A stretch of 64,000 bases of DNA from a virus. The stretch lies in UHGV virus genome UHGV-0038495; one strand, written 5' to 3'. The position numbers and the translations under genes are program-made. Position 1 is the first letter of the stretch; each line of letters begins with the position of its first letter. Of the stretch, positions 16,686-62,821 are shown piece after piece. Under the pieces are notes generated by a model. It searched no databases. It was given only the letters and a program-made list of their open reading frames with translations, and was not told the DNA's origin.

Positions 16686-17930
16686 ACCGATGGGACTATA
16701 GAAGAGGTAGAAAAAAATAACTGCCTGTATATATCTTTACTGCTAATCCGCAGGGTCGCTATCTACTAGCGGCTAACGGGGAAGGCTGACCGTTACACAT
16801 GTATGTCAAAACATGTTTAGGCGAAGTTAATCCCGTGGGAAAATACTAATAAATATAAGTGCAAAAGGAGAAATGATGATAGGCATATACAAAGTTACTA
16901 ATAAAATTAACAATAAAGTTTATATTGGTCAAAGTATTAATATAGAAAATCGTTTTCAACAGCATAAAAATAATTGTTCAAATGAAAATTTAAAGGATTA
17001 TAATACTAAGTTTTATAGAGCTTTAAGAAAATATGGAGTTGAAAATTTTACTTTTGAAGTATTAGAAGAATTAAGTAAAGAAGAATTAAATGAACGAGAA
17101 AAATATTGGGTATCTTTTTACAATTCTTTTAAAGAAGGATATAATAGTAATGGCGGTGGAGAAAAGGTTACAGAGAGCGGAGAATTACATCCAAATGCTA
17201 AAAACTCAAACGAAACTATTATAGCATTGAAAAAAGAAATAATAGAAGGTAAATTATCTCATGCGCAGCTGGGAGAAAAATATGGAATTAGTTCTTCAGA
17301 AGTTGGCTTAATTAATTTAGGTAAACGTTGGAGCTCAGTGGGTGATTTTACTTATCCATTAAGAAAAGACCCTATTGTAAGAAAAGGCTCTCAAAATGGA
17401 CATTCTGTTTTTTCTGACGAACAAGTAATGGATATAAGAAAAAGATATGTTAATGAAAGCGGAAGAAAAATTTATGAAGATTATAAAAGCATATGTTCTT
17501 ACACAGCTTTGGAAAGAGTTCTGTTAGGTAAGACGTATACATATCTTCCAATTTATAAAAAGAAAGAGCAGCGTTGGATAAATCCAAGTAATTAATTAAT
17601 TTTTTTATTTATTAGTATAATCCTGTATCGACTATTCCGGGTTAGACTGGAAGTAGGGCTATTATTGATACATAGCTAGGTTTTAGGAAACGAAGCCTAT
17701 GAAAACCGAAAAGGATATACTCTTAGGGAGTTGACACCTCCTAGAGTAAGATATAGTCAATACCAACAGAAATGTTGGGTAAATATGAGTAGGTGTAGAT
17801 GGTACGATCCTGAATGAAGTTATAATCCCTAGATGGTGGGGCCTAGTCGCGTGAGCGATTATGGAAAAATTGCGTGAACCTAAGACAAAAGGGTGTATTA
17901 TTAAAAATAATGCTAACGGAGAAGACATCA
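16686..17930 (+). mobile_element. Group I intron 2 in terL with GIY-YIG endonuclease ORF. Boundaries approximate
   Basis: R element atcgactattcc at about 17628; S gagtaagatatagtc at 17747..17761; P9 hairpin accaacagaaatgttggg with GAAA loop. Confidence 0.5.
16873..17595 (+). CDS. GIY-YIG homing endonuclease (intron-encoded)
   Basis: N-terminus IGIYKVTNKINNKVYIGQSINIENRFQQHKNN is the GIY-YIG motif. 240 aa. RBS aaaaggag. Confidence 0.8.
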   Translation: MMIGIYKVTNKINNKVYIGQSINIENRFQQHKNNCSNENLKDYNTKFYRALRKYGVENFTFEVLEELSKEELNEREKYWVSFYNSFKEGYNSNGGGEKVTESGELHPNAKNSNETIIALKKEIIEGKLSHAQLGEKYGISSSEVGLINLGKRWSSVGDFTYPLRKDPIVRKGSQNGHSVFSDEQVMDIRKRYVNESGRKIYEDYKSICSYTALERVLLGKTYTYLPIYKKKEQRWINPSN

Positions 17931-18035
17931 AGAACTCCGTGCCAAGTTTTAAATATATTTAAAGAAGGTGTAGAGATCATGGGTGATGAATGTAGCCCAG
18001 TAGGATGGATTTTGTCACCATCCGGAGCGCGCAAC
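17931..18035 (+). CDS. terL: Large terminase subunit, exon 3 (Walker B DE). Boundaries approximate
   Basis: Open frame encodes KEGVEIMGDECSPVGWILSPSGARNN, which aligns with T4 gp17 [30 protein letters not shown]. Confidence 0.45.
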
Positions 18036-19242
18036 AACTACTAGATAGTTGATGATATGATCCAATAGATGACCATGAACATTGATAGACTTGCAGGAGA
18101 TGGCAAGAGATATGAGAATGAAATGTTAAACAAGAGCCAAATTTACGTTAAATTTTTTGGGCAAAAGGTTACAAATTTATATGTTTTATTTTTATATATA
18201 TAGAAAGCATATTTTTATTTTTTAGACATAGGAGGTCTCTATATGTACTATATATATAAAATTGAAAATCAAGTTAATCACAAAATTTATATTGGTTTAA
18301 CCAATAACATTGCTCGTAGAAGAGCAAGACATTTTACAGATTTAAGATGTAATAAACATGATAACTCTTTTTTACAAAAAGAATTTAATATTTATGGAGA
18401 AGATAATTTTTCTTTTAATATTGAATTTGAAGGAGATGTAACTCCCGAGGAAATTGGTAAAAAAGAACAAGAATATATTAAAAAATATGATAGTTATAGA
18501 AATGGCTATAATCAAAATGAAGGTGGAAATTTTGGACCTAGTAATGGAGGTACTCATTTAACACAATCGGATATTTTTAATATATTATCTGCCTTAGAAT
18601 TTTGTTCTAAACCAGGAGGGGTTTTATCTGAAATGTATGATGTAAGCAGCACTACTATCTCTAGAATAAAAAAAGGAGTAAATCATAATCAATATAAAGA
18701 AGAATATGATAAGCTGCCCCTTGAAGAAAGACAGCGTATATACAAAATTTTTTGTGATAGCACCAACTTTTACAAAAACAAAATAAATACAACAATTATA
18801 AAAAGTAAGAGAAAATTAACAAAAGAACAAGTTTTTATGATTTTGGTTAATTTTGAATATAAAATTATTACACGGGTAAAAATGGCTGAAATAGTTGGTG
18901 TTTATAGCACTTATACATTAGATTGTATAAAAAAAGGATTAACTTATAAAGATTATGCATATGAATATGAACAATTAAGTAATGACCAAAAACAAGAAAT
19001 AGCGTCCTTATTGAGAAATCAATAAGAGTAAATTTTTGAATTGCTGGGAACTCCATATTGAAATGGACAATCAGCAGCTAAGTCTTTTATATTAATAAAA
19101 GAAAAGTCCAACGACTATAATAAGTACATGCAAGCGCATGGAAGCGGAAATCCCCTTTGTGAGGGTGAAGATATAGTCTATTCTATATAGTAATATATAG
19201 CAGTTCATAAGAGAACGTATGTAAAGTAGCGATTTACATAGA
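18036..19242 (+). mobile_element. Group I intron 3 in terL with GIY-YIG endonuclease ORF. Boundaries approximate
   Basis: P element aattgctgggaa at about 19035; Q aatcagcag at about 19068; R ccaacgactat at about 19098; S gaagatatagtc at 19167..19178; P9 hairpin ctatatagtaatatatag; 3' hairpin tgtaaagtagcgatttaca as in intron 1. Confidence 0.55.
18243..19025 (+). CDS. GIY-YIG homing endonuclease (intron-encoded)
   Basis: YYIYKIENQVNHKIYIGLTNNIARRRARH is the GIY-YIG motif. 260 aa. RBS ataggaggt. Confidence 0.8.
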   Translation: MYYIYKIENQVNHKIYIGLTNNIARRRARHFTDLRCNKHDNSFLQKEFNIYGEDNFSFNIEFEGDVTPEEIGKKEQEYIKKYDSYRNGYNQNEGGNFGPSNGGTHLTQSDIFNILSALEFCSKPGGVLSEMYDVSSTTISRIKKGVNHNQYKEEYDKLPLEERQRIYKIFCDSTNFYKNKINTTIIKSKRKLTKEQVFMILVNFEYKIITRVKMAEIVGVYSTYTLDCIKKGLTYKDYAYEYEQLSNDQKQEIASLLRNQ

Positions 19243-50178: not shown

Positions 50179-50808
50179 ATGGCAGTACCAAATCAAATTG
50201 TGTACCGGCTAGAAGATTATAGGGTTGAAGGTGGTTATATAACAACGCCTTCAGGTATAAATATCCATAAAGAAATAGTTTCTCAAATGAAAATGGGTAA
50301 TTTTAGTAAGTTGGGGATACAGGCCCCACCGGGCACAAAATTTCAAATTAATGGAATCTCAATTATGATGGGAAGAACTGGTATATATGAATTGGATGAA
50401 GATGTTCAAGTAGCCACACTGGTTTTTGAGGAAGTACCTAATTATGAAAAAGATGATGAAAAAACTGGAATAGCTTTATCAGAAGGTATTTCGTTAATGA
50501 AAGAAGCCAAAGAGCTTTATAATACTTACATTATTAAAGATGCAGAAACTAATATTGAGAAATATCCTGGCAATATGGATGAAGATAAAAATTTTACAAC
50601 TCAATATTGGCTTGATTACCAAAAAGTTATGACTGGTGGAACACTTTCAAATGGAACTATAATTACAACTGGATATAATACATTAATAGAAAATGCAAGA
50701 AGTCAGCTGCTGCAAGGCGCGAATGGTATTTATGTTGCAAATGGAACGAAAGAACTTAATAATGTTATTATAGACTTTTTAACAGAGAAAGGAGGTAGTG
50801 GTAACTAA
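50179..50808 (+). CDS. Small baseplate or fiber-associated protein
   Basis: 209 aa. RBS taggaggt. Stop overlaps the next start (TAATG). Confidence 0.35.
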   Translation: MAVPNQIVYRLEDYRVEGGYITTPSGINIHKEIVSQMKMGNFSKLGIQAPPGTKFQINGISIMMGRTGIYELDEDVQVATLVFEEVPNYEKDDEKTGIALSEGISLMKEAKELYNTYIIKDAETNIEKYPGNMDEDKNFTTQYWLDYQKVMTGGTLSNGTIITTGYNTLIENARSQLLQGANGIYVANGTKELNNVIIDFLTEKGGSGN

Positions 50809-53105
50809 TGGATATGAGCTTTTATGGCGGCAAGCAAGGAAAAAGTTTTAGAATATCTAAGGTTTTTCAAAATAAAGCCGAATTAATTAGAGATTTAAAC
50901 GCTCGTTGGAATTCAAGTATTGGTATTAATGAATTAGTATTTATTAACTATGGAAATCCGGGGAATAAAGACATAGTGGTTCGCGCAGGAGAAATCATTG
51001 AAATAGATGGTCAAAAACTTCCACCTACACTAAAGGATTTAACTTTATTTGAAAAAAATAGATTTATAGATTTTAATTACGAATTTTCGGTTTATGATGA
51101 AGAGCAAGGACAGTATGTAACCAAAGCTGATGGTAAGCTATTTAATACTACTATTTGGCAAAAGATTTATAAAGATGATATTCCAATTAAGACAGATACT
51201 AAAATTGATCCAATTAAAGGGATAGATAGATATATGATTTCTGATGATTTTGGTGTTGGCTATGAACTTGTAGCTTGTTTAACCGGAAATACGCCAGAGA
51301 TTTCAGTAGAGAGTTCTTGGATTTATACAGACCAAGAGCCAAGGGCATATTTGAATAAAGAGAACTATGATGCTGAAAAACCTTTAATTCATTTTGATTT
51401 ACCTAAAGGAATAACTTTGCTTTATGGACCTGAATTAATAAATCGGAATACAACAGAGTTAAGACTTGATGTAACAGAAAAATTTGGAACTGGTGACTAT
51501 TATATAAATAATACAAATGGAAATACTTATTTATGTACTGCGGTTGGCGCGCAAACAAATGGGAAAAAAGTATATATAGTTAAATACATTGCAACATTAG
51601 CAAGAGAAGTTGATGAAGTTACTATTGAATCTGTAAATCCATACGTATCTGTTGATGGTTCTTGGAAACAGCAAAACGCGGGCGTTCAGAATACTATAAA
51701 TGACGAAACTTGGAATATAAAATTTACTCTACCAAAATTACCAACTCTTTCTACATCCGTAAGTGAATTATTGTCGCCAGCAAATCGACAGAGAATTACA
51801 GTGACTGGCGCGATAAAAGATGCAAATACTTATAATTTTGATTTCACTCTTGCAAAACCGTCCGTTTGGTTAAATGGCGCAGGCGTTCCAGGAAATGCAG
51901 CTGTTGGGGAAGATGGTGATTATTATTTAAACACTGAGACACAAGATGTTTCTTTTAAAAATAATGGTGCTTGGAATTTAGTAACTAACATTAAAGGTGC
52001 TCAAGGTATTCAAGGCATTAAGGGAGATAACGTTGCTATTGTAAATAGTTTTGATTTTGTTTATGATGCAACAGTTACGGGTTATATAAAAGTAGAAGGT
52101 GCAGAAAATACTTACAGAGGTAATTTAGATCCAAGTTCAACGGTGGATTTAGTAAAATTTGGTGAGATTGCCGTAGAAGTTAATGGTAATAAACAGCCAA
52201 AATCTTCTGATTTATTTAATCTTAATTATACCAATGCAAAAGGTGAAGAAAATGCATATTGGTTATTTAAATTAACCAATGATAGTAGTAATAATAAGTG
52301 GAGTTCTATGAGAGTTACTGGTAATGCGGGTTCTCTTGCAACTTTACTTATGAATGAATTTGATGCAGAAAATAGGTCTGATAAAACTTATACTACTGGA
52401 TATATTAATAATAAATTTACAGAAGAAGAAGCAAAAGTAGATGAAAAATTTAGTAACTTTACGATAGATAACATGATTACTACCGCGGCAGCTGTTGCTC
52501 CCAAAGGTGGAGAATTTACCTTTGATATAGGTGAAGGTGTTATTAAGGCAGACCAAAAAGTTGTTTTTAATGTTACTAAAGATGATGACACGGTATTTGA
52601 TGCCGCTTTTTCAAATATACAAAAACAAATAAATGATTTTAAGAACGCAACCATAGATATCGCGCACGGCGGAACTGGTGGTACAACCGTAGAGGAAGCG
52701 CGCATGAATCTTGGGGTGTATAGTAAGACAGAAATTTATAATAAGACTGAGATTGATAAAAAGGAAACTACTTTACAAGAAAGCATAAGTAGTGTTGAGG
52801 ATAAAGCAGCTAAAGCACAAGTCGCAGCAAAAAATGCAACAACTATAGCCTTGAACTTTACAATTCCTTTAAAGAGTTCTGGTACTGGAACTTGGACTAC
52901 GGTAGAAGGAAAAACGAGAGTTGTTTTAAACATAGAACATGGTTTTACAGATACTAATAAACAACCTATGGTTGTTTGCAAAGATAATGAAGATGAATCT
53001 TATCAGAAGATAGAAGAAATTACTTTTGATACTGGCAATATTTCTATTATTATGAGTGAAGAAAATAAAGTAGCGATTAATTTATTTGCTTTCTATCCAC
53101 AATAA
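50808..53105 (+). CDS. Tail fiber protein with short collagen-like segment
   Basis: GAQGIQGIKGDN is a run of G-X-Y triplets. HGGTGGTTVEEARMNLGVY resembles the GGTGA...AR.NLG motif common in phage tail fibers. 765 aa. Confidence 0.55.
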   Translation: MDMSFYGGKQGKSFRISKVFQNKAELIRDLNARWNSSIGINELVFINYGNPGNKDIVVRAGEIIEIDGQKLPPTLKDLTLFEKNRFIDFNYEFSVYDEEQGQYVTKADGKLFNTTIWQKIYKDDIPIKTDTKIDPIKGIDRYMISDDFGVGYELVACLTGNTPEISVESSWIYTDQEPRAYLNKENYDAEKPLIHFDLPKGITLLYGPELINRNTTELRLDVTEKFGTGDYYINNTNGNTYLCTAVGAQTNGKKVYIVKYIATLAREVDEVTIESVNPYVSVDGSWKQQNAGVQNTINDETWNIKFTLPKLPTLSTSVSELLSPANRQRITVTGAIKDANTYNFDFTLAKPSVWLNGAGVPGNAAVGEDGDYYLNTETQDVSFKNNGAWNLVTNIKGAQGIQGIKGDNVAIVNSFDFVYDATVTGYIKVEGAENTYRGNLDPSSTVDLVKFGEIAVEVNGNKQPKSSDLFNLNYTNAKGEENAYWLFKLTNDSSNNKWSSMRVTGNAGSLATLLMNEFDAENRSDKTYTTGYINNKFTEEEAKVDEKFSNFTIDNMITTAAAVAPKGGEFTFDIGEGVIKADQKVVFNVTKDDDTVFDAAFSNIQKQINDFKNATIDIAHGGTGGTTVEEARMNLGVYSKTEIYNKTEIDKKETTLQESISSVEDKAAKAQVAAKNATTIALNFTIPLKSSGTGTWTTVEGKTRVVLNIEHGFTDTNKQPMVVCKDNEDESYQKIEEITFDTGNISIIMSEENKVAINLFAFYPQ

Positions 53106-53150
53106 AAAAAATCCCCTCTACTGTATAATTGTAGAGGGGATTTTTTATTT
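53103..53150. terminator. Bidirectional intrinsic terminator between convergent genes
   Basis: A8, then perfect 10-bp stem tcccctctac/gtagagggga, then T6. Confidence 0.7.
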
Positions 53151-53681
53151 TATTCCTTCAAGATAAAATCTTATATTTAAATCTATATAATCGTCTATAT
53201 TAATTTGTCTTACTTCAGTATAAAATCTGCAATTAGAACAAGAACTAAGTGAATAAGTTTTGGTATTGTTTATAGGAGCGATATAATATTCTTGATTAGA
53301 CATATAAAGGAAAAAAGTACTATGTATATTTTTTGAAAAGGTGAAAGATTTTTTATATTCTGTTGTGTCTCCTTTTGTAGTAAATAAATGATAGATATAA
53401 AACTGTCCTATGTTATCAAACTCAAATGTAATATCCACCCAAACCTGTCCAGACTTATATCCAGCTATTTTAGTAGAGCAACTTCCATCATATATTCCAA
53501 GATTTATATAGTTATAATTTTTCATTTTTTCAATGGGTAAGACAAGTTCAGAAAAAAGACTCTTAGAATGACTCTGCAATGGATCCATATTAAGAGTTAT
53601 TGGGTCAGAAATAAAAAAAATTTCTTTTTTTAAACTTTCTTTACTATTATTTTGACCTAGTAAAATTCCTTTTGTTGCCAT
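53145..53681 (-). CDS. RBP-like paralog 1 (N-terminal MATKGILLGQ)
   Basis: Start placed at the internal Met (RBS caaggag), not the track's 53756. Shares the GILLGQ N-terminal motif with four other ORFs. Confidence 0.5.
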   Translation of the reverse strand: MATKGILLGQNNSKESLKKEIFFISDPITLNMDPLQSHSKSLFSELVLPIEKMKNYNYINLGIYDGSCSTKIAGYKSGQVWVDITFEFDNIGQFYIYHLFTTKGDTTEYKKSFTFSKNIHSTFFLYMSNQEYYIAPINNTKTYSLSSCSNCRFYTEVRQINIDDYIDLNIRFYLEGIK

Positions 53682-53734
53682 GATGTAATCTCCTTGTATT
53701 AGAAATATACACCATTTAAAAGATTTGTAATATT

Positions 53735-54205
53735 TTACAGTTTCATTATAAAACAAAGAGCATAATAAGGCGGCATATTGTTGTGGGAATTTCCTTTACC
53801 GACGGTAGAAGTAGTAGTATCACCAGACATACTACCAGCTTCTAAGCCTGGTAATGTTTTTGCAGAACCGGCATAGCGTGAGGCATATTCTAGGGATATT
53901 CCATTCGTTCCACTTCTATAATCACTATATTGAATTATATCGTGCGTATGATTACCAATATCATGGCTATGACTAGGCATTTGCGCAATAGTAAGAGTAA
54001 CTTCTTTTTCACCACCTGTTGCGCCTACAGTATAATTTTTACCTGCGCCTAATACAAATTTATCTCTTAGATCCGGAGTATTATTACTTCCATTACATAG
54101 CGCCCATCCATTTGGTATATTAGAACTAGAACCAGACCACATACAGATTAGACCCGTGGGGATTGAGCCACCATCGCCTTGACCTAATAAAATACCTGTA
54201 CTCAT
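53735..54205 (-). CDS. RBP-like paralog 2 with phage tail-collar domain
   Basis: MSTGILLGQGDGG... then IPNGWALCNGSN...TPDLRDKFVLGAG matches the tail-collar (MdpB-like) domain. 156 aa. Confidence 0.65.
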   Translation of the reverse strand: MSTGILLGQGDGGSIPTGLICMWSGSSSNIPNGWALCNGSNNTPDLRDKFVLGAGKNYTVGATGGEKEVTLTIAQMPSHSHDIGNHTHDIIQYSDYRSGTNGISLEYASRYAGSAKTLPGLEAGSMSGDTTTSTVGKGNSHNNMPPYYALCFIMKL

Positions 54206-54243
54206 AATAAAGACCTCCTTTATGAGTACAGAATTTTAATTTA

Positions 54244-54696
54244 TTAAAAAATTTTTATTGCTGAAACTATTAACTTGCCAGAATAGACACCTTTACTAGA
54301 AAATTCTAATTGAGAAGGCGAGTCTGTTCGTAAAGTTGTCACAAAATCTTCCCCATTTGCAATTTGGGCAATATAATAAGAACTGTTTTTTGTCCTTGAG
54401 CGAATTTGAAAAAGTTGCCTAAAATTTGTAACTTTAACATTTTTTTCTAAAGTCATTATAATTTTATTATTATATTCTGAATTACTTATTCTTAAATATC
54501 CATAATATTCACTCCCCTGTATAGCAGTTCCTTCTAAAAAAAAAGAAATAAAATCATAGTTATTTAAAATATCTTCCGTCCAGTCAATTCTACCAATATA
54601 AATAGAATCGCTAGATAAAGAAAATTCTGTAACAATATATTTTTCTATTGTGGAGAAACTATCACTTTTCCCAAGTAAAATGCCATTAACTGCCAT
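54244..54696 (-). CDS. RBP-like paralog 3 (MAVNGILLGK)
   Basis: 150 aa. Shares the conserved N-terminal motif, followed by a divergent body. Confidence 0.5.
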   Translation of the reverse strand: MAVNGILLGKSDSFSTIEKYIVTEFSLSSDSIYIGRIDWTEDILNNYDFISFFLEGTAIQGSEYYGYLRISNSEYNNKIIMTLEKNVKVTNFRQLFQIRSRTKNSSYYIAQIANGEDFVTTLRTDSPSQLEFSSKGVYSGKLIVSAIKIF

Positions 54697-54937
54697 AAAG
54701 ACCTCCTTGTCTATTTACAAGAAAATAAAATCAGTAAAATTTTTTGGACAAAAATGGTTCAAGTCGCTGAGTATATTTTTATAATATATAGAGATATAGA
54801 ATATCTTATGCCGGTAAGGGATAACTATATCTCTTACCAATTTTTTTATAATTTTTATAGTTTACAAATGAAAATTTACACTTTTTTACATTTCAAAAAA
54901 GTGTGGGTTTTTAAGACTGATAGAAAGGAGAATTATA

Positions 54938-55476
54938 TGAGTGTAAATGGAATTTTATTAGGACAGAATAATAAAAATGATAATGAAAATGATTTAAACT
55001 TTAAATTTTACAAAACTTTTTCTACATCAGGCAATAGTTGGTCTGACATTGATTTACCTAATGGTTATATATACAAAATTTTTATAAACAAACTTAATGA
55101 TTGGGGAAATAGATATGATTTTATGAACTTACAGATTCAAAATGATAGTACTAACCATTATTATTATTATCCTTCTTCCTTCTTAACAAGCTATAATCCA
55201 AGTCCATGGGGAGTTAACTCAAAAGAATCTTCCAGAAATAATACTTTTAATTTAATTGGAGAATCTCCATATAATAATACTGCAAGCGAAGCCCCTCTTT
55301 ATTTAACAATATGTGCTTTGCCAAGTAAGGGATGGTGTATTGTACAATATCTTAACTCATTAAAGAAATTCGTAGAATGGAAAGTAACTTCGAGTCTTTC
55401 GTTATCATATTATGACAGTTATCAAACCTCTGGAAGAACTATAGCTCAGATTTATCGAACACCTTTTAAGTTTTAA
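54938..55476 (+). CDS. RBP-like paralog 4 (MSVNGILLGQ)
   Basis: Start at ATG 54938 after RBS aaaggag. The track's upstream extension to 54754 lacks an RBS and covers the divergent promoter region. Confidence 0.5.
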
Positions 55477-55522
55477 ATTAATTATTTATTAATTTTATAC
55501 ATTTCTTAAATAATAAAAAGTA

Positions 55523-55531
55523 TGATATAAT
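55523..55531 (+). promoter_or_regulatory. Extended -10 promoter TGATATAAT(ATA), copy 2
   Basis: Same 12-mer as at 31584 and 57567. Confidence 0.4.
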
Positions 55532-55558
55532 ATAAACAAAAGAAAAGGAGATTAACTT

Positions 55559-56044
55559 ATGGCATTATTCAAATTAGTAGATGTTTTACCAAAAGAAAAA
55601 ACTAAAGGATATGTTTATTTACAGCGCGCAGGTGAGAAAAATGCAGTTATGTATGCAGATATATCAGAATCAGAAAGAGTTGGAGTTGCAGCAAACGCAA
55701 TAGTACAAAAGGATGAAATAATAGAAGCTGATGAAGTTGCAACTATTAATGATATCGCAGAATTGCGCGAACAGCTTAATGATCTTTTAATCCAGGTCTC
55801 TATGGGTGCGAAGATGTTCCCAATCACTTTGGAGAAAGGTAAATGGTCCGAAGTCGAGTCACGTTGGATATACGAGGAAGAAATTGCTAGCGTGAACGAT
55901 CCAGAATCTGTAGTAATACAGTGTACTGAAAATGAACGTGAATACAGTTTGATTATGGCTTGTAAGGTAGAAGAAGGAAAAATTCAATTTATAGCAGGAC
56001 ACCAACCGATAAATCCAATCTCAGTATTAGTAATTATAAAATAG
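55559..56044 (+). CDS. Hypothetical protein
   Basis: 161 aa. RBS aaaaggag. Confidence 0.4.
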   Translation: MALFKLVDVLPKEKTKGYVYLQRAGEKNAVMYADISESERVGVAANAIVQKDEIIEADEVATINDIAELREQLNDLLIQVSMGAKMFPITLEKGKWSEVESRWIYEEEIASVNDPESVVIQCTENEREYSLIMACKVEEGKIQFIAGHQPINPISVLVIIK

Positions 56045-56074
56045 AATCGCTTAAATGCGGTTCTATTTTTTTTT
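56044..56074 (+). terminator. Intrinsic terminator
   Basis: gaatcgc/gcggttc stem with one mismatch, followed by T9. Confidence 0.5.
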
Positions 56075-56089
56075 GCCTTTTTTGAGCTT

Positions 56090-56200
56090 GCTGTTTTGTC
56101 GAATGCAATAAGCTGAGCATAGCAATTTGTCGAATCCAGCGGGCTGAGCATAGCAATTTGTCGAAATTTGTAGAATTTTGTCGAAAATTACAGTTACGAA
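56090..56200. repeat. Iteron-like direct repeats TTTGTCGAA (four or five copies), including two 23-bp copies of gctgagcatagcaatttgtcgaa
   Basis: Copies at about 56095, 56127, 56158 and 56179, with a variant tttgtagaa at 56167. The 23-mers are at 56113 and 56142. Confidence 0.6.
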
Positions 56201-56280
56201 TATTCACAATCATCCTCTTATATTTTTTATAACTAATGAAGGGGTTTAAAGTATAATATAAATTCCAAGAAAGGAGAATT

Positions 56281-56703
56281 GTGTTGAACAACAATAATTA
56301 TTACCCCGGCGCACAAGGGATAAATATCCCACCTAGAGCGCCAATTTATAATGCTCCTCCGACAGGTTTGAAGGGTAGACCGGTATCCTCTATAGAAGAG
56401 GCACGAGCAATCGCCATAGACTTTGATGGTGTAATAAACTATTTCCCAGACTTAGCTAATAACCGCATTTACACTAAACAATTTCAAATGGACGGAACTG
56501 CGCCACTTAAAATGTATGTATTAAAAGAGATTCCTAACAACTTTGAATTCTCAGAAGGAGATTATATCACAAGAGAAGAATTCAATAACGTTATATCTAA
56601 GCTAACCGCGCTTTTGCAGCAAAATCAGCAAATTCCGCCTGTAGAAGAACCAACCCCTACGCCTGAACAACCTGCCGCGAAGCCTTTAGATATTAATTTT
56701 TAA
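56281..56703 (+). CDS. Hypothetical protein with Pro-rich C-terminus
   Basis: GTG/TTG start after aaaggag. 140 aa. Confidence 0.4.
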   Translation: MLNNNNYYPGAQGINIPPRAPIYNAPPTGLKGRPVSSIEEARAIAIDFDGVINYFPDLANNRIYTKQFQMDGTAPLKMYVLKEIPNNFEFSEGDYITREEFNNVISKLTALLQQNQQIPPVEEPTPTPEQPAAKPLDINF

Positions 56704-56715
56704 AGGAGGAAAAGA

Positions 56716-56967
56716 ATGAATAATATGCAGATGGACCCTAGACTAAAAGTTATAATGCAACTAAAAAACGGGGCGAATCCACAACAAATTGTAATGAGCA
56801 TGCTACAGCAAAGCGCGTCTCAGAATCCAATGGCTCAAAATTTCTTAGCTCTTGCAAACTCTCATAAAACAAACGATATGGAGCAAATTGTAAGAAATAT
56901 GTATCAAGCCAAAGGATTGGATTTTGACAAGGCAAGCTCAGAATTGAAAGAAATGCTCCGTAGATAG
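56716..56967 (+). CDS. Hypothetical Q/N/M-rich small protein
   Basis: 83 aa. RBS aaaggagg. Confidence 0.4.
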   Translation: MNNMQMDPRLKVIMQLKNGANPQQIVMSMLQQSASQNPMAQNFLALANSHKTNDMEQIVRNMYQAKGLDFDKASSELKEMLRR

Positions 56968-56976
56968 GAGAAATTT

Positions 56977-57504
56977 ATGTTTAACGGTAATACTAATGGT
57001 TATAGTTTAGCAGATATCGCTGCTGCTACTGGTGGTTATGGTAACAGAGATTCAGGCTGGGGCGGCGATGGCTGGTGGTTAATCCTTATCCTCATGTTCT
57101 GTTGGGGTGGCTTCGGTTATGGCGATGGCTTTGGTAGAGGTGGTTTTGGAGGAGGTACAGCAAATTCTCCAGCATTCCAAGGTGCGCTTACTAGAGCAGA
57201 CTTATGTGAAGAAAGTAACTTCAACAATTTATCTCGCGCAATAGAAAGTGGATTTAAGGGTTCTAATGAAGGTTTTGCGTCTGCGGCACTGGCTCGCGCG
57301 AATAACACTGCAGCTTTACAGAGTTCACTTTGTCAAGGTTTTAATACTGTTCAGAACACTATTACTAATGGTGATTATGATATCTTACAGTCTATTAATT
57401 CTAATACTGTTGCAAATATGCAGAATACAAATGCGATTACTGCACAGTTGAATAATATGGCAGCTCAACAGGCTAATTGCTGCTTAACTTCACAGGCAGC
57501 CTAA
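56977..57504 (+). CDS. Gly-rich membrane protein with N/Q/A-rich C-terminal region (paralogous to 58502..58882). 3' end may include intron-derived codons
   Basis: GGYGNRDSGWGGDGWWLILILMFCWGGFGYGDGFGRGGFGGG, then IESGFKGSNEGF...AAQQAN, similar to IAQGFSDLNYN...ASQQAQN of the downstream ORF. Confidence 0.45.
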   Translation: MFNGNTNGYSLADIAAATGGYGNRDSGWGGDGWWLILILMFCWGGFGYGDGFGRGGFGGGTANSPAFQGALTRADLCEESNFNNLSRAIESGFKGSNEGFASAALARANNTAALQSSLCQGFNTVQNTITNGDYDILQSINSNTVANMQNTNAITAQLNNMAAQQANCCLTSQAA

Positions 57505-57566
57505 ACGAGTAATTGTTTAGTTAACAATCCGGTGAATTGCTGGAAGGCTAAGTTTACAAAAAAATA

Positions 57567-57575
57567 TGATATAAT
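57567..57575 (+). promoter_or_regulatory. Extended -10 promoter TGATATAAT(ATA), copy 3
   Basis: Same 12-mer as at 31584 and 55523, about 37 nt upstream of ATG 57612. Confidence 0.4.
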
Positions 57576-57611
57576 ATATACATAAAAATATTTTAAAGGA
57601 GGCATAAACAA

Positions 57612-58355
57612 ATGTCTGAGAAAAAATTTTATGTATATAAATGGTTTAATACTTCTACAGGAGAAGTCTTTTATATCGGCAAAGGATGCGGAAAAAGATT
57701 TCAAGTTACAAAAAAAAGAAATCAAAAATTTCTTGATTACATATCAGAAAATCCTGTTAGTAGTGAAATCATAGAGTCTAATTTAACAGAGGAAGAAAGT
57801 TTTCAAAAAGAAAAAGAATGGTATGATTATTATAAATCTTTAAATCAATGTTCTTGTAATCTTATGGAACCTGGAACAGGAGGATTAAGTTTTGTATGGA
57901 CAGAAGAAATGAAAACTTACTGGTCTAAAAATAACCCTATGAAAAAAGAAGAACAACGTCAACGAATGAAAGAAAATAATCCTATGAAAAATCCAGAAAC
58001 CGCTTTAAAAAATGGTGCGGCTCACAAAAGAGCTGTTATTATTGGGGATAAAACTTTTGATAGTTTAAAAGAAGCAGGATTATTCTTTAATGTAAGTCCA
58101 GTGACAATTGGTAGTTGGTGTAAAAACGGAATTAGTTCAAAGGGAGAAAAATGCTCTTATGCAGATGGGAAAGGAGCTAAAAAATGCAAGAACAAAGGAA
58201 TTCCTGTTTTAATAGATGACGTTTATTATCCATCAATAGCGGACGCTGCAGCTCACTTAGATGTTTCCGCTTCTGCCATTAAATTAAGTTTAAAAAATAA
58301 TAAACCTACTAAAAATCATATTTGTAAATATGCTAATCAGCAGCCTAGCCAATGA
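57612..58355 (+). CDS. GIY-YIG homing endonuclease with NUMOD-like DNA-binding repeats
   Basis: FYVYKWFNTSTGEVFYIGKGCGKRF is the GIY-YIG motif. Repeated NNPMKK...NNPMKN motifs. Confidence 0.75.
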   Translation: MSEKKFYVYKWFNTSTGEVFYIGKGCGKRFQVTKKRNQKFLDYISENPVSSEIIESNLTEEESFQKEKEWYDYYKSLNQCSCNLMEPGTGGLSFVWTEEMKTYWSKNNPMKKEEQRQRMKENNPMKNPETALKNGAAHKRAVIIGDKTFDSLKEAGLFFNVSPVTIGSWCKNGISSKGEKCSYADGKGAKKCKNKGIPVLIDDVYYPSIADAAAHLDVSASAIKLSLKNNKPTKNHICKYANQQPSQ

Positions 58356-58501
58356 AAGTCAATAAAAGTAATTGGAAGGTTCAACGACTAATGGGTGAGC
58401 TATGACAAGCAATAAACCCAACACGAGTGCCGGACTCCTTTTATAAAAAGGATGAAGATATAGTCTGAACTATATGGAAACATATAGAAATAAGGAATAA
58501 A

Positions 58502-58882
58502 ATGCCTTATGATAACAATATTGGTGAAACTAAAACTCAGATAGCTCAAGGTTTCTCAGACCTTAACTACAATCTCGCGACCCAAGAGTGTCAGACTAGA
58601 CAGGCAGTAACAGATAGTGCAAGAGACATAATTGATAATCAGAATGCAAATACTCGCTCAATCCTTGACTTCTTAACTCAGGATAGACTGGCTTCATTAA
58701 CTGCTGAAAATCAGTCACTTAAATTTGCAGCTTCACAACAGGCTCAGAATGCTTACCTTGTACAGCAACTTGGCGCGAAACCTGCAGCACCAGCATATGT
58801 AGTACCAAATCCTTATACTGGTTCTTATAATTATAACTATGGTGGATGCGGCTGCAATTACAACACTGGCGCACTCGCATAA
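58502..58882 (+). CDS. N/Q/A-rich protein with C-terminal CGC motif. Either a paralog of 56977..57504 or exon 2 of the same gene
   Basis: 126 aa. The frame is open upstream to 58469, so an exon junction just before the ATG is possible. Confidence 0.4.
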   Translation: MPYDNNIGETKTQIAQGFSDLNYNLATQECQTRQAVTDSARDIIDNQNANTRSILDFLTQDRLASLTAENQSLKFAASQQAQNAYLVQQLGAKPAAPAYVVPNPYTGSYNYNYGGCGCNYNTGALA

Positions 58883-58896
58883 GAAAGGAGTAGTAT

Positions 58897-59316
58897 ATGG
58901 AAATAACTGCTAATGCTGTTCAAACAGTAGCTTCAAACGGAAACGTTTTATTCACAGCAACTGCGGTTCCGGGGTCATGTAGCATAATCCATAGGCAAGG
59001 CTCTGGGTTAGTTAATCTTAGAGGAGTGACACAGCAGTGTCGCTCCCGCTTTAGAATTTCATTTGGAGGAAATGTGGCACTTGCAACGGGCGCAACAGTT
59101 GGACCAATTACCTTAGCTCTTGCAATAGATGGAGAACCAGTTTCATCAACTTCAATGATAGTAACACCTGCCGCAGTTGGAGATTATTTTAATGTATTCT
59201 CAAGCATGTTTTTAAATGTTCCTCGCGGAGATAATTATTCTATAAGTATTAAAAATCTTAGTGGAGTAAACGTAGACATTCAAAATGCAAATTTAATTGT
59301 AGAAAGGGTGGCGTAA
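58897..59316 (+). CDS. BclA C-terminal-like (C1q/TNF-like jelly-roll) domain protein
   Basis: 139 aa ending NLIVERVA, comparable to the BclA C-terminal domain ending IIIEKVA. Alternating hydrophobic beta pattern throughout. Confidence 0.45.
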   Translation: MEITANAVQTVASNGNVLFTATAVPGSCSIIHRQGSGLVNLRGVTQQCRSRFRISFGGNVALATGATVGPITLALAIDGEPVSSTSMIVTPAAVGDYFNVFSSMFLNVPRGDNYSISIKNLSGVNVDIQNANLIVERVA

Positions 59317-59317
59317 T

Positions 59318-59896
59318 ATGGAAGGTTTAAAGACAATAAAAAAGACTTTAATCGCGGCGGTTCAGGGTCAGATCGGAGATCTTGGTAATGTAGACGCGCA
59401 TGAAATGGGCGAAGTCGTAGATATGATTAAAGACCTTGAAGAAGCTTGCTATTATCATACGATAGTAGAAGCAATGGAAGAGAAAGATGAGCATGGAAAA
59501 AGACGCTATTTTAGAGAACTTCCATATTATCCTAATCCAATGTATGATAGAGATAGATATGAACAAGACGAGCCTTATAGAATGTACTATCACGATGGGC
59601 GCGGAACCAGAATGAATTCTGGACGTTATTCCGAATATGATGACGCTATAGGTCCATATCGTGAGACTAAAGTACCGACTATGAAACGAGACTCGCGCGA
59701 AGGTAGAAGTGGTCTTTCAAGAAAAGGCTATATTGAAGCACGCGAAGGTCATTTAGACAAAGAAACAAAAATGAAAGAATTAGATAAGTATATGAATGAT
59801 TTAACTCAAGATATAGTGGAAATGATAAATGATTTATCACAAGAGGAAAAAGATTTATTAAGGAATAAGATGGCAGGTCTTGTGAATAGAATTTGA
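59318..59896 (+). CDS. Hypothetical charged protein
   Basis: 192 aa rich in R, E, D and Y. ATGG overlap with the previous stop. Confidence 0.4.
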   Translation: MEGLKTIKKTLIAAVQGQIGDLGNVDAHEMGEVVDMIKDLEEACYYHTIVEAMEEKDEHGKRRYFRELPYYPNPMYDRDRYEQDEPYRMYYHDGRGTRMNSGRYSEYDDAIGPYRETKVPTMKRDSREGRSGLSRKGYIEAREGHLDKETKMKELDKYMNDLTQDIVEMINDLSQEEKDLLRNKMAGLVNRI

Positions 59897-60201
59897 TAAA
59901 GATTAATAATGTTAAATGGGAGATATATCTTGTATCTCCCAATCATCCAGAAATGTGCCAGCCAGACGGAACTTGGACTATAGGCGCTTGTGACTGGCAA
60001 ACCAAGGGTATTTATATCGTAGATAACTTAGACGAAGCTTTGACATGGAAAGTTCTAGCTCATGAGATTACTCATGCTGCGATGTTTAGTTATAATATCG
60101 CTATGAGCGCAGAGCTAGAAGAGTTTATTGCCGATTTAATAGCCACGTATGGATTTGAAATCATAGCTCAAACTAATAAAATTTTCTCAAGAATTACATA
60201 A
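59893..60201 (+). CDS. Small HExxH zinc-metallopeptidase-like protein (ImmA/IrrE-like?)
   Basis: VLAHEITHAAMF carries an HExxH motif. 102 aa. Confidence 0.4.
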   Translation: MIKINNVKWEIYLVSPNHPEMCQPDGTWTIGACDWQTKGIYIVDNLDEALTWKVLAHEITHAAMFSYNIAMSAELEEFIADLIATYGFEIIAQTNKIFSRIT

Positions 60202-60248
60202 AAAAAATAAAGGGTAGTAACGTAAGTTACTACCCTTTTTCTTATTTT
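60201..60248. terminator. Bidirectional intrinsic terminator between convergent genes
   Basis: A7, then agggtagtaac gtaa gttactaccct as a perfect 11-bp stem, then T5cttatttt. Confidence 0.7.
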
Positions 60249-60625
60249 GTAAATATTTTTTCTTCTTTAACCGCAGCTTCGATTTTAGCATCTATATAAG
60301 CATCTAAATCTTTTATTGCGGCTTCCAGTATTTTTTGACCATTTTCGCCTAAAACATCCATAACTGCTTTCTTAGTTTTGTTAAAGGCAAACTTCTGCGC
60401 GCTCTCATCAAATTTACCTTGTTCCTTGAGTGCATCTACATAAGTCTGATTCGTAGCGGAAACCGCATCTTGAATAGCTCTTTCTAACAAGTCTATGTAG
60501 AAACTAGCTTTTTCATTCTTTGCCTCTTGTTTAGCCTTTGTAGCGAAATTATGCAAAAGACGAATGAGTACAATACCGAGAATCGCGCACAGCGCTTCAA
60601 TAATTTGGTATATATATTGTTCCAT
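60242..60625 (-). CDS. Holin, LL-H (phage_holin_6)-like
   Basis: Single N-terminal TM (IYQIIEALCAILGIVLIRLL), then a long charged helical tail ending KIEAAVKEE. 127 aa. Confidence 0.45.
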   Translation of the reverse strand: MEQYIYQIIEALCAILGIVLIRLLHNFATKAKQEAKNEKASFYIDLLERAIQDAVSATNQTYVDALKEQGKFDESAQKFAFNKTKKAVMDVLGENGQKILEAAIKDLDAYIDAKIEAAVKEEKIFTK

Positions 60626-60673
60626 GGAATTTATTCCTCCTTTATATAAGAAATAAAAAATCCATTAATAAGA

Positions 60674-61294
60674 TTATAATAATTTGTCCAAATCAGCACC
60701 ATATTTTTTTGGGTCTTTTAACATATTACGCAAAGTGCTATAACAGTAACCATCGGCAAACTGCAAAAGCGCAGTAATTGGATAGCCTTCTTTCCAAAGA
60801 TTATAAATCATTGGAAAGTTTTCTGGGAGTTTTTTAGTTGGACGCCCAAATGCTACTCCTTTTTCTTTCGCTATTGCAATACCCTCAGCTTGACGCTGTT
60901 TGATAAATTTGCGCTCTTGTTCAGCACTAAAAAATAAGACGTTTACTATAAGATTATTAATAAATATTCCCATTTCTCCAAGTTCATGATTAGTATTAAG
61001 AAAAGGTGTATCAATTACTTTTATTTGGATATGGCGTTTTTGAATTAGCTCTGACCACATTTGCAGCGCTTCCTCGTAATGGCGCGAGAGTCTGTCTAAA
61101 GATTTTATAACTAGAGTATCACCCTCTTTAATTACCTTCATGAGTTTTTGATAAGATGGACGGTTAAAATCTTTGCCTGAAGCCTTATCACTAAATACAT
61201 GATCTTCAGTCACTCCCGCATCAGATAGAGCTTTTAATTGCCTGTCTAATTTCTGTTCGTGACTACTTACTCTTGCATACCCATAGATTTCCAT
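60674..61294 (-). CDS. Small serine recombinase (Hin/Gin/resolvase family, likely DNA invertase)
   Basis: YGYARVSSHEQKLDRQ carries the catalytic Ser, and GDTLVIKSLDRLSR is also conserved. Small size with a C-terminal HTH segment. 206 aa. Confidence 0.8.
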   Translation of the reverse strand: MEIYGYARVSSHEQKLDRQLKALSDAGVTEDHVFSDKASGKDFNRPSYQKLMKVIKEGDTLVIKSLDRLSRHYEEALQMWSELIQKRHIQIKVIDTPFLNTNHELGEMGIFINNLIVNVLFFSAEQERKFIKQRQAEGIAIAKEKGVAFGRPTKKLPENFPMIYNLWKEGYPITALLQFADGYCYSTLRNMLKDPKKYGADLDKLL

Positions 61295-61409
61295 TGTAAC
61301 ACCTTTCTTTCATTAATCTTTTTATTTTATTATAACATGTTTTTTATTTAATTAAAATGGTAATAATTAACAATTTAATTAAAGTATCCTTTTTAAAATT
61401 AGATCAAAA

Positions 61410-62639
61410 CTATCCGGATATTAATTGTTTAATTGACAGAGAGACAACTTCATTTTCATTAATCTCTGTTGGTTTTTGAATAATTTCTGTTTTAAATAAA
61501 TAATTATCACTATAAGAATATTTTTCTGGTATTTTTAGAATTTTCCAAGGTCCATTTGCATTTTTAGAATAATATAAAAATTGCGCAGTAAGAAAACCTT
61601 TGTAATCATTTAAAATAATTAAACGTTGAATTATATTATCCGGTATTTCAGATAGCCCAATATTAGTTTTATTGGCTAATATTGAAATATTTTCTCCATA
61701 AACTATCTCGTTATCTTTTATACTAGCTAATAATCCATTGAAATTTAATATTCCAGAAATTAATGGGGTTTGATATTTTGTATAGGAACCATCTTTATCA
61801 TGTGTTATGGCTGCAGAATCCGCTGCATAAAACATGTTTTGACTCCAATCTTTTCTCATTCCAAAACTTCTAAATCCTTGAGAATCAGGCTCAAATTGTG
61901 CTCGAATATTAAAAGCGCTATCTGTCCACCAGTTATAAATATTCTTCTTACAATCATTTTCATTAAAAGAATCTGCGTATGGTATAAAAAAATGAATATT
62001 TACATAATCATCTCTTTTACGATAACAATAATGTATTCCATAGTCATTTTTTTCTATATTAACTTTTTGAATAGAAAAATTAGTTTCATCTCCAAAACAT
62101 AAAGGAGAATTGCTATCGGTTATTTGTGTATATTGATTCCAGTCTATTAAGTTTTCAGATTGAAAAATTTTAACACATACATACTCATTTCGAGAACTAT
62201 TCAAAGAGTCTTTATATGTACCTGCGATATAATATTTTCTATCTGTTCCACATAAAAAAGTGGCTTCATCTGGATAAAAAGTTGTTGAAGAACCTAATAT
62301 GTTAAAAGGATTAGCATATTGCCATGTTATAAGATCTTTTGAAAAAGCTACATGATGGTAGTAATAACGATACATTGCCCAAGTGTAATAATAATAATAA
62401 TAAATAATAAAAATTCCATTATCATAATGGATATTCTTTATAACGACACTGTCAAAAGTTTGGTTATTATCTGTTATATTATAAAGATTTTTTAACTCAA
62501 CTGTTAAATTTTTTATATCTTGTATATCTATCCCTTTAAGAAAAACAGTCGTTCCATTAAATATAACTTTTTCACAATCCACTCCATTGTAAACAACTTC
62601 TGTAATATTAGTTCCATTTACTTTTATACTCATTATCAT
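61410..62639 (-). CDS. RBP-like or tail-fiber-like protein (409 aa). N-terminus is homologous to the GILLGQ paralogs
   Basis: MSIKVNGT...VIFNGTTVFLKG resembles the N-terminal region of the GILLGQ family. Tyr-run YYYYYYTW. Body possibly a beta-propeller/carbohydrate-active fold. Confidence 0.45.
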   Translation of the reverse strand: MIMSIKVNGTNITEVVYNGVDCEKVIFNGTTVFLKGIDIQDIKNLTVELKNLYNITDNNQTFDSVVIKNIHYDNGIFIIYYYYYYTWAMYRYYYHHVAFSKDLITWQYANPFNILGSSTTFYPDEATFLCGTDRKYYIAGTYKDSLNSSRNEYVCVKIFQSENLIDWNQYTQITDSNSPLCFGDETNFSIQKVNIEKNDYGIHYCYRKRDDYVNIHFFIPYADSFNENDCKKNIYNWWTDSAFNIRAQFEPDSQGFRSFGMRKDWSQNMFYAADSAAITHDKDGSYTKYQTPLISGILNFNGLLASIKDNEIVYGENISILANKTNIGLSEIPDNIIQRLIILNDYKGFLTAQFLYYSKNANGPWKILKIPEKYSYSDNYLFKTEIIQKPTEINENEVVSLSIKQLISG

Positions 62640-62642
62640 TCT

Positions 62643-62730
62643 CCTTTAACGATTATTAAAGTTGTTCCATCTAAAGTAAAAGTAACAGTATCTTGCCCTA
62701 ACAAAATTCCATTTACAGCCATTTTTACAG
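62643..62730 (-). pseudogene. Truncated 28-codon copy of the conserved RBP N-terminus (MAVNGILLGQDTVTFTLDGTTLIIVKGE*)
   Basis: Begins with the same MAVNGILLGQ as 54244..54696 and stops after 28 codons. The 409-aa ORF then starts 4 nt downstream in another frame. Confidence 0.45.
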
Positions 62731-62821
62731 GCTCCTTTCTGTTTTATAATCGTACACAATTAAAAAGGCATAAAAAAAATGGGTAGACAATTAAGTCTAC
62801 CCAACAAGAAGGAAATGAAAA

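Follow-up and report, generated by a model that had tools for sequence, protein, structure and literature searches.

A probable multi-site inversion system that shuffles complete GILLGQ-headed genes in a human-gut phage

A gene for a small serine recombinase lies at positions 60674-61294 of the virus genome UHGV-0038495, near several genes that open with the peptide GILLGQ. This raises the question of whether the enzyme rearranges these genes and, if so, at which DNA sites. The window analysed here is one strand of a 64,000-nucleotide (nt) stretch of that genome. An earlier note had taken the recombinase for part of a multi-site inversion system that shuffles the GILLGQ family, and had taken the DNA word of about 18 base pairs (bp) that encodes the peptide for its crossover site. 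Reciprocal inversions and deletions among related genomes bear out the system, and the crossover site lies elsewhere, in the 5' untranslated regions (5'UTRs) of the genes that move (hereafter cassettes). The junctions, the combinatorial re-pairing of their halves, the inversions and the deletions are observed directly. We consider it very probable that the locus is one arm of a multi-site inversion system in which this recombinase shuffles complete genes.

The relatives compared were contigs at least 99% identical, with an identical or a 98%-identical recombinase. Ten loci encode the same recombinase, P0122, which is 98% identical to that of the window; their DNA is 99-100% identical and their genes stand in at least seven different orders. 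Among these loci, either orientation was found for the 188-bp segment s1, for a 543-bp one-gene segment, for a two-gene segment of 1.65 kilobases (kb) and for an 8.7-kb unit that carries the recombinase, a holin and seven other genes. Some of the loci also lack a 2.2-kb two-gene segment that others have. Segment s1, as it stands at 8093-8280 of relative L027, is inverted in L028, L029, L031, L032 and L034, and the junctions are exactly reciprocal: the left halves CATTTCAAAAAAGT and TTAATTTTATTATATT exchange between GT-ACTCATAAAGG and GT-GGGTTTTTAAG, and the only bases in common are T-GT. A second lineage encodes recombinase P0124 which, like P0122, falls in the 90%-identity cluster of P0001, itself 98% identical to the window's enzyme. 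Between two genomes of this lineage, L037 and L038, three slots (the upstream positions to which cassettes are joined) are permuted with three cassettes, and the large unit is inverted. The recombinase-bearing unit is thus found in both orientations among genomes with an identical recombinase (L027 and L033, L037 and L038).

Rearrangements also separate the window from its relatives. Relative to L027, positions 55510-61378 and s1 are inverted and the flanks are direct. Relative to L016, a 142-kb contig labelled Hadza/Nepal that is 99.86% identical to the window, the difference is an insertion or deletion of two cassettes. L016 carries additional cassettes of 373 and 291 amino acids (aa) between the 150-aa and 156-aa genes (L016 17114-19127, window 54185-54253). 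A 69-nt direct repeat flanks the pair, and the interval of crossover spans about 13 nt around the GT core. In other relatives, segment s3 was deleted between site E and a quasi-site, ..ACTT-GT-AAATTTTCA, within a 390-aa gene, with a loss of 2.2 kb that left a 22-codon open reading frame (ORF), MAVNGILLGQNNNNNDIENLHN followed by a stop. Contigs with recombinases of 79-98% identity have common sequence up to about 90 nt upstream of the recombinase ATG and different cassettes after it; beyond this point the cassettes of some relatives face the opposite way, and many contigs stop there. Contig ends of the P0001, P0002 and P0122 lineages frequently fall on crossover sites, and the P0122 lineage is fragmented, with only contigs shorter than 20 kb in 43 of its 62 index blocks. 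The system explains why assemblies of these phages break at this locus, and the exact sites and junctions given here can be checked directly in existing reads.

All junctions mapped between near-identical genomes fall on T-GT in a 5'UTR, 22-41 nt before an ATG, and none falls in the GILLGQ-coding word. Tyrosine recombinases need a longer identical overlap, and two or three shared bases suit serine recombinases. Exchange over three shared bases is therefore a signature of a serine recombinase, and not of homologous recombination, k-mer misassembly or a tyrosine recombinase. Across the 26 loci scanned, 21 different left halves are paired with 25 right halves in 42 ways, and the left half of site Z, at one end of s1, is joined to eight different right halves across the relatives. 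Aligned on GT, the position matrix shows T at -10 in 20 of 21 left halves, T at -9 in 18, A at -5 in 18 and T at -1 in all 21. On the right side it shows a purine (R) at +1 in 15 of 15, T at +6 in 12, R at +9 in 15 and A at +10 in 14. Since these positions mirror one another about the middle of GT, the site is a degenerate dyad that spans about 22-24 bp around a 2-bp core, of the pattern TT-N3-AA-N3-T / GT / R-N3-TT-N2-AA. The right half of each site is the 5'UTR of a cassette, and the distance from the core to the start codon is 22-34 nt in the window and reaches about 41 nt in relatives. Within the window, neither AAAAGTGTR nor AAAAGTGTACNNTT (two mismatches) is more frequent than expected by chance, and the sites are therefore not discoverable from the window alone.

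These observations suggest a scheme in which the recombinase would act on the degenerate dyad in the 5'UTR of each cassette. A cassette is either one complete gene or a small operon, and has a ribosome-binding site (RBS) of its own, a decapeptide head of the form M-x2-3-G-I-L-L-G/N-Q/K, a low-complexity linker and a variable body. Recombination between inverted sites would re-pair the upstream slots with cassettes, the slots being the two ends of s1, the recombinase side, the block side, the early-gene side and positions within operons. The same reaction would flip the 6-8.7-kb block that holds the recombinase gene. Between direct sites or quasi-sites it would delete cassettes and leave head remnants such as the 28-codon ORF of the window. 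Because the crossover lies in the 5'UTR, complete genes move and no constant N-terminus is spliced to variable C-termini; because it lies upstream of the RBS, the head is not needed for recombination.

The recombinase itself exists as first described, as a 206-aa protein. It matches the Pfam Resolvase family PF00239 (E = 3e-30, residues 3-147), and its best phage family match is PHROG 125, 'DNA invertase' (E = 1e-48, residues 1-196). Residues R8, S10, D36, R45, D67, R68 and R71 align with gamma-delta resolvase in an alignment that reaches residue 174. Together with a size in the range of about 180-210 aa, these catalytic residues place it among the small serine recombinases of the resolvase/invertase family. 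The C-terminal helix-turn-helix of the earlier note finds some agreement, in that the PHROG and PDB alignments extend into the C-terminal domain, but no Pfam helix-turn-helix model scored on the protein. On its label 'Hin/Gin-like' the evidence points both ways: the PHROG family is named for DNA invertases, and among the solved structures Bin3/Sin (2.6e-28), gamma-delta (1.8e-26) and Tn3 (1.2e-24) rank before Gin (8.5e-18). No NCBIfam family scored above cutoff for the recombinase or the cassettes. By tblastn it is the sole serine recombinase within the window. In the IMG/VR relative L010 (10001-10603) the recombinase ORF stops early, at 200 aa, ending in DPKKIWC.

A promoter-like element with an extended -10 box precedes the recombinase gene. 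The underlying motif, TRTGNTATAATA, is enriched across the window, with 21 matches at up to one mismatch against 10.2 expected, a number reached in none of 100 shuffles. It likely marks promoters of the block, of the homing endonuclease gene and of the recombinase gene, for example at 55521, 57565, 61328(-), 12543(-) and 31582.

The five GILLGQ starts of the earlier note are all real, at 53681(-), 54205(-), 54696(-), 54937(+) and 62722(-); the last two had been placed a few bases off, at 54938 and 62730. This pair had been named as recombination partners, and it matches sites Z and E, the equivalents of which recombine in two close lineages. Such starts are not a product of chance, as 63 of them (41 distinct proteins) occur across 15 related loci. 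The 'conserved 18-bp word' proved to be only 64-82% identical, over 34-39 nt, among the five heads. It differs at synonymous positions (GGA/GGT/GGC, TTA/TTG, CTA/TTA/CTT) and also between CAA, CAG and AAA. This synonymous variation indicates that the peptide is what is conserved, and not a DNA site. Together with the position of the mapped junctions, it speaks strongly against the word as the place of crossover.

Homology of the cassettes to known tail proteins comes from the 156-aa protein, which matches positions 383-545, the C-terminal part, of the 545-position profile of PHROG 1800, 'tail collar fiber protein' (E = 4e-28), and more weakly the Pfam families Collar and Gp10_C. Only the head and a glycine-rich linker precede this body. 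The other cassettes have the same layout of head, linker and body, and are orphans or carry Asp-box-like motifs. We propose that the head serves to dock these proteins to a socket on the tail that all of them share. The cassettes would then be alternative receptor-binding proteins that dock through a common decapeptide.

The gene next to the recombinase fits the family less well. Its start is better placed at ATG 62633, with AAAGGAG 7 nt upstream, which gives 407 aa instead of the 409 aa first assumed. The gene begins ATGAGT-ATAAAA-GTAAATGGAA; ATGAGT and GTAAATGGAA are common to a head, and the 6 nt between them are an insertion (MS-IK-VNG). The N-terminus had been read as a divergent copy of the GILLGQ module, and on its sequence it appears to be a partial copy of a head at most, in which ILLGQ is missing. 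Nor does the description as fibre-like hold: the protein is an orphan without detectable fibre homology, as a database search returned only the protein itself and Pfam, PHROG and NCBIfam gave no match. The AlphaFold model was unusable, with a predicted local distance difference test score (pLDDT) of 34.

Directly upstream, the 28-codon ORF consists of an intact head and 18 further codons; three stops follow, and then the 407-aa gene with its own RBS. The ORF is identical in L016. Its reading as a recombination remnant remains plausible by analogy with the 22-codon ORF that site-specific deletion produced in relatives, and the 28-codon ORF may likewise be a recombination scar. We also considered a programmed frameshift from the 28-codon ORF into the 407-aa ORF, and rejected it on account of the three stops in the first frame and the strong RBS at the second ATG, with no slippery sequence present.

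Segment s1 is short and intergenic and occurs in both orientations, as expected of a promoter inverton; the same is true of a 175-bp segment in more distant relatives (L022 against L023 and L024). In a weak scan, s1 contained a terminator-like hairpin (54813-54838) followed by a promoter-like element, TTACCA-16-TATAGT (54834-54861), that points out of the Z end. No other slot is as promiscuous as the AAAAAAGT end of s1. The hairpin and promoter-like element, this promiscuous end and the early-side slot that follows a terminator favour a model of one expression slot and silent storage. Judging by these elements, s1 would supply the promoter and the cassette at its AAAAAAGT end would be the one expressed. 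A late-promoter motif common to s1 and the intergenic regions of structural genes was sought, and none was settled on. On the early side, the hairpin beyond site E (62773..62802) would insulate slot E from the upstream early genes.

Taken jointly, these parts would form what may be called a 'gene-slot machine'. A single invertase would join the s1 promoter to any of about five to nine silent receptor-binding-protein genes that dock through the decapeptide. It would also flip its own gene and, in related phages, switch expression between a receptor-binding protein diversified by a retroelement and a fixed one. We put this combined picture forward tentatively, as a possibility that falls somewhat short of probable. 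If true, it would be a form of host-range switching distinct from the exon splicing of Mu, P1 and p15B, and the first shuffling of receptor-binding proteins by a serine invertase in phages of Gram-positive gut anaerobes. The analysis as a whole also links inversion switches with diversity-generating retroelements in related phages. It suggests a compact and portable design that combines degenerate sites some 24 bp long with a 206-aa enzyme and a decapeptide adaptor, and that is of interest for the engineering of phage host range.

The sites of the window itself (Table 1) agree in part with this scheme. Site Z is the sole canonical plus-oriented site. The left half of site E recurs unchanged in L010, L037 and L038 with three other cassettes attached, and that of site a is joined to a 382/383-aa cassette in L030 and L036. 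The difference of two cassettes between the window and L016 maps to site b. Site X is site-like and lies within s1, inverted to Z, and its right half, GT-AAATTTTCA, is that of the quasi-site behind the s3 deletion. At site P, the sequence common to the relatives reaches 'aacaatt' and then diverges, and the P0122 and P0124 lineages have AACAATTAAAA(A)TATT-GT there in front of varying cassettes. A breakpoint on the recombinase side directly after aataattaacaat was ruled out by exact string search. Junctions P (window and L010) and B were also rejected as canonical products, as they look like two joined left halves or have AGT or AT for TGT. L010 resembles the window in that its cassette faces inward and its core at site P, AT, is non-canonical. 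At 54205-54232, the Shine-Dalgarno sequence stands between the arms of a perfect 10-bp inverted repeat, CTGTACTCAT ... ATGAGTACAG, and the same is seen at the MSTGILL and MSTEGILL heads of L016, L027 and L037. The right half of the site could pair there with the start-codon region to form a translational hairpin.

Several observations weigh against the inversion system as we read it. Inversion between inverted sites at a 2-bp core, as in Gin, Hin, Cin and Min, was found in relatives and not in the window's own strain: the eight contigs of this strain, mostly long, show one gene arrangement. A flip of s1 would leave the neighbouring genes unchanged, and this could be checked in only three of the eight. 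Site P of the window, AACAATTTAATTAAA-GT-ATCC, reads AAA-GT in place of T-GT. Since it reads AGT and all eight contigs have one orientation, inversion of the cassette at 61.4-62.7 kb is doubtful. The 407-aa cassette is probably frozen in this strain, and events at s1 and between Z and a, Z and b, or Z and E may still occur. Junction B is displaced by 6 nt from the canonical block-side site of the relatives, and its function as a site is uncertain. Tail-fibre homology was detected in one cassette only, the 156-aa protein. Motif TRTGNTATAATA is absent from s1, and no standard promoter was pinned down there. The assignment of the inversions to the adjacent recombinase rests on adjacency and reaction chemistry, and we infer rather than observe its role as their catalyst. 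Finally, the hybrid gene of L030 shows that some exchange also occurs at the heads: at 9851-9913 a 124-aa cassette has the 5'UTR and head of a 339-aa cassette (MSTNGILL|NIKD...), and the crossover seems to have taken place where the head word ends, over a local identity of only about 3 nt.

This hybrid bears on an alternative in which the GILLGQ-coding word is the crossover site and a constant start is spliced to alternative bodies, as by Gin, Cin and Min. The word occurs in both orientations, and homology between more distant strains often stops just after it. But the junctions between near-identical genomes all lie upstream of the ATG, the word varies at wobble positions, and the dyad of the position matrix falls on the 5'UTR sites (whether the word has a dyad core of its own was judged by eye). 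The L030 hybrid and the swaps between distant strains also fit ordinary homologous exchange over about 70 nt of 5'UTR-plus-head homology. We consider crossover at the word highly improbable. That homology, in turn, could give rise to the whole picture, if the differences came from homologous recombination and mosaicism among co-circulating strains or from misassembly of repeats, without programmed recombination. The 5'UTR-plus-head repeats are 60-75 nt long at 96-100% identity and could both mislead assemblers and promote homologous recombination, and cassette bodies are wholly different between strains that are 93-95% identical. Many junction partners, however, have only 3 nt in common (such as the two s1 ends and the right halves ACTCAT and GGGTTT), and neither homologous recombination nor a k-mer misjoin could act on so little. 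The exchanges are reciprocal, fall on the same nucleotide in independent lineages, samples and assemblers, and recur in a distant family of different sequence. We regard this explanation as the least probable of all.

The inversions might also be real and the work of another recombinase of host or phage, with the 206-aa protein a resolvase, for example for multimer resolution. In sequence the enzyme is nearer the solved Sin (Bin3), gamma-delta and Tn3 resolvases than Gin, the inventory of recombinases covers the 64 kb of the window in a genome of about 142 kb, and deletions between direct sites, a resolvase-like outcome, also occur. Yet in all genomes of the W family a crossover site is found about 90 nt from the recombinase gene, and in two distant families that have little else in common in this region the gene lies 2.3-2.5 kb from a small invertible segment. 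Moreover, the chemistry of a 2-bp core demands a serine recombinase, and the window has no other. We therefore think it very unlikely that another enzyme is responsible, and continue to favour the adjacent recombinase.

Inversion systems that shuffle whole genes in this way appear to differ from those described so far. Gin of Mu, Cin of P1, Pin of e14 and Min of p15B cross over within coding sequence and join C-terminal segments to a constant N-terminal part. All of them resemble the present system in that a phage-encoded small serine recombinase adjoins invertible DNA with short imperfect dyads and a 2-bp core. Min is further alike in its several crossover sites in both orientations, its many isomers and its tail-fibre and host-range targets. 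Here, by contrast with Gin, Cin and Min, no crossover falls within tail-fibre coding sequence: it lies in the 5'UTR, and whole genes move, each with its own RBS, start codon and head, the decapeptide taking the place of the constant exon. There are also two clusters of sites, the recombinase and about eight other genes lie within an invertible unit, the enzyme is nearer resolvases than Gin in sequence, and the probable host is a clostridium without Fis; to our knowledge, Fis is not expected in such a host. Site Z, TCAAAAAAGT-GT-GGGTTTTTAAGA, bears some resemblance to the hix site (TTATCAAAAACC-AA-GGTTTTTGATAA). The general layout of the 26-bp hix/gix/cix-type sites is similar, with outer TT and AA, inner A and T tracts and a 2-bp core, but the sequence differs: here the core is GT instead of AA and the half-sites are far more degenerate.

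As in Hin/hix of Salmonella and the Mpi invertons of Bacteroides, a short segment between genes, plausibly promoter-bearing, is flipped by a serine recombinase (188 bp here, 175 bp in the ortholog family). Here, however, the segment is one of at least seven interacting sites, its ends join many cassettes instead of toggling a single operon, and its promoter is putative. The R64 pilV shufflon uses the tyrosine recombinase Rci to swap C-terminal coding segments on a constant N-terminal gene. The Rin shufflon of Bifidobacterium prophages likewise uses a tyrosine recombinase, with an 11-bp asymmetric repeat, to swap C-terminal segments onto a constant N-terminal gene (PMC6109161). Both resemble our system in the multi-segment shuffling of receptor-binding variants, and Rin also in that it belongs to phages of a Gram-positive gut bacterium and was found by comparison of related genomes. 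The present system differs from Rin and Rci in its serine recombinase, 2-bp core and whole-gene cassettes, and is not a shufflon in the strict sense. Diversity-generating retroelements also diversify receptor-binding proteins, and the target in L018 and L022 has the same kind of N-terminal head; they do so by mutagenic retrohoming, whereas recombination acts here. No retroelement was found in the examined part of the window. A literature search found no description of such a whole-gene, 5'UTR serine-invertase system. As far as we know, host-range switching by inversion is known almost entirely from Mu, P1, p15B and e14 and from one bifidobacterial case with a tyrosine recombinase.

The association extends to distant families. 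In L022-L024, a syntenic ortholog of the recombinase (54% identity) is followed by the same holin-like gene and lies 2.3 kb from the 175-bp segment. Its orientation in L022 is opposite to that in L023 and L024, at 100% identity of the segment itself and 99.4-99.97% identity of the genomes, and it is flanked by 12-bp inverted repeats, AAAAGTACACTT and AAGTGTACTTTT, with the same GT core inside. It lies between a 480-aa gene that starts with MKAILQGQ and a retroelement target gene that starts with MPKVILVEQGG. The same repeat architecture is present in L018, where the recombinase is 52% identical. The likeness of these families shows that the association of recombinase, small segment and 'ILxGQ' head is old. 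Directly beside the small invertible segment, L018-L024 carry a diversity-generating retroelement (for example L022 1-3455) that comprises a reverse transcriptase, an accessory gene of 154-164 aa and a target of 585-602 aa with Big_3/DUF6273. Inversion in these genomes may choose between a retroelement-diversified and a fixed protein.

The phage belongs to an uncultured human-gut lineage that is found in many metagenomes, among them samples with the labels Hadza and Nepal, and has a genome of about 140 kb (about 142 kb). A 94.7-kb Logan contig contains the window at 100% identity. From ORF calls, the plus strand of the window from about 12.8 to 53.1 kb encodes structural genes, the last of which is a 765-aa fibre-like gene (50808-53105), and early genes occupy the minus strand at 60.2-64 kb and 1-12.5 kb. 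The host is probably a clostridial Gram-positive. Strong Shine-Dalgarno sequences throughout the window fit a Gram-positive host, and a recombinase 99% identical to that of the window was found on a contig binned with the metagenome-assembled genome of an uncultured Clostridium. A tRNA search for host inference found none. Megablast of 52.5-64 kb against GenBank phages matched only group I intron fragments and no relatives, and IMG/VR scans with the recombinase, the 409-aa protein and the 5'UTR motif yielded only two related contigs.

Table 1. Positions of genes, crossover sites and associated elements in the window
Feature	Position	Strand	Remark
Cassette gene, 178 aa, MATKGILLGQ	53145..53681	-	ORF
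Site a, core 53710-53709	53696..53723	-	Upstream of 178-aa gene
Cassette gene, 156 aa, MSTGILLGQ	53735..54205	-	Tail-collar, fibre-tip type body; PHROG 1800
Site b, core 54229-54228	54214..54242	-	Upstream of 156-aa gene
Cassette gene, 150 aa, MAVNGILLGK	54244..54696	-	ORF
Site Y, core 54718-54717, TTTTATTTTCTT-GT-AAATAGACAAGG	54705..54730	-	Upstream of 150-aa gene
s1, 188-bp invertible segment	54717..54904		Bounded by sites Y and Z; 95.7% identical to L027 8093-8280
Site X, GT 54878-9, AAAAAAGT-GT-AAATTTTCA	54865..54891	-	Site-like; inside s1, 24 bp from Z and inverted to it
Site Z, core 54903-54904, CATTTCAAAAAAGT-GT-GGGTTTTTAAGAC	54889..54917	+	34 nt upstream of ATG 54937
Cassette gene, 179 aa, MSVNGILLGQ	54937..55476	+	ORF; now joined to Z end of s1
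Junction B, T-GT 55501-55499	55486..55516	-	Between 3' end of 179-aa cassette and block
5.9-kb unit: seven plus-strand genes, holin, recombinase	55510..61378		Opposite orientation in related genomes (L027)
Serine recombinase, 206 aa	60674..61294	-	PF00239, PHROG 125; probable invertase of the system
Extended -10 promoter-like element, CATGTTATAATA	61328..61339	-	For recombinase gene; between site P and recombinase ATG
Site P, recombinase-proximal crossover position, GT 61384-61385	61369..61398	+	A instead of T before GT
407-aa cassette gene	61410..62633	-	ORF with own RBS; 409 aa if start at 62639
28-codon head-remnant ORF, MAVNGILLGQDTVTFTLDGTTLIIVKGE and stop (MAVNGILLGQ...)	62636..62722	-	Overlaps next ATG as ATGA
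Site E, core GT 62755-62754, ATGCCTTTTTAATTGT-GT-ACGATTATAAAAC	62741..62771	-	33 nt upstream of remnant ATG
Terminator-like hairpin, GGGTAGAC..GTCTACCC, then T8	62773..62802	-	Read from sequence; kept in L010, L027, L033

Other features of the region lie outside the cassettes. Two tandem 31-nt repeats, 84% identical, occupy 56095-56156 (TTTGTCGAAT..GCTGAGCATAGCAA) upstream of the 140-aa gene at 56281; with the further copies of TTTGTCGAAA, they may be an operator or an iteron-like array. At 57485-58523, a 288-aa gene is interrupted by an insertion of 1,039 bp, which leaves the parts 56977..57504 and 58502..58882; the gene is unsplit in L009, L010 and L027. The insertion holds a 247-aa ORF (57612..58355) that opens with a putative GIY-YIG-like motif. 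It also holds a match to the group I intron family RF00028 (58253-58487) at 48.6 bits, just below the gathering score of 50; Rfam gave nothing at gathering score in 52-64 kb. Its megablast matches were an annotated intron of a Staphylococcus phage and unannotated stretches of Bacillus phages. A group I intron with a stronger match to RF00028 (101.9 bits, 18986-19200) lies in long 'intergenic' stretches at 15500-20310, together with two GIY-YIG homing-endonuclease ORFs (16873..17595 and 18243..19025); more than one intron probably interrupts a gene that lies close to where the plus-strand block begins. In L028, L029, L033 and L035, which belong to the P0122 lineage, a GIY-YIG ORF interrupts nrdD, the gene for the anaerobic ribonucleotide reductase, and leaves parts of 414 and 287 aa (for example L033 852-4160); in the window's strain (L012) nrdD is intact, at 704 aa.

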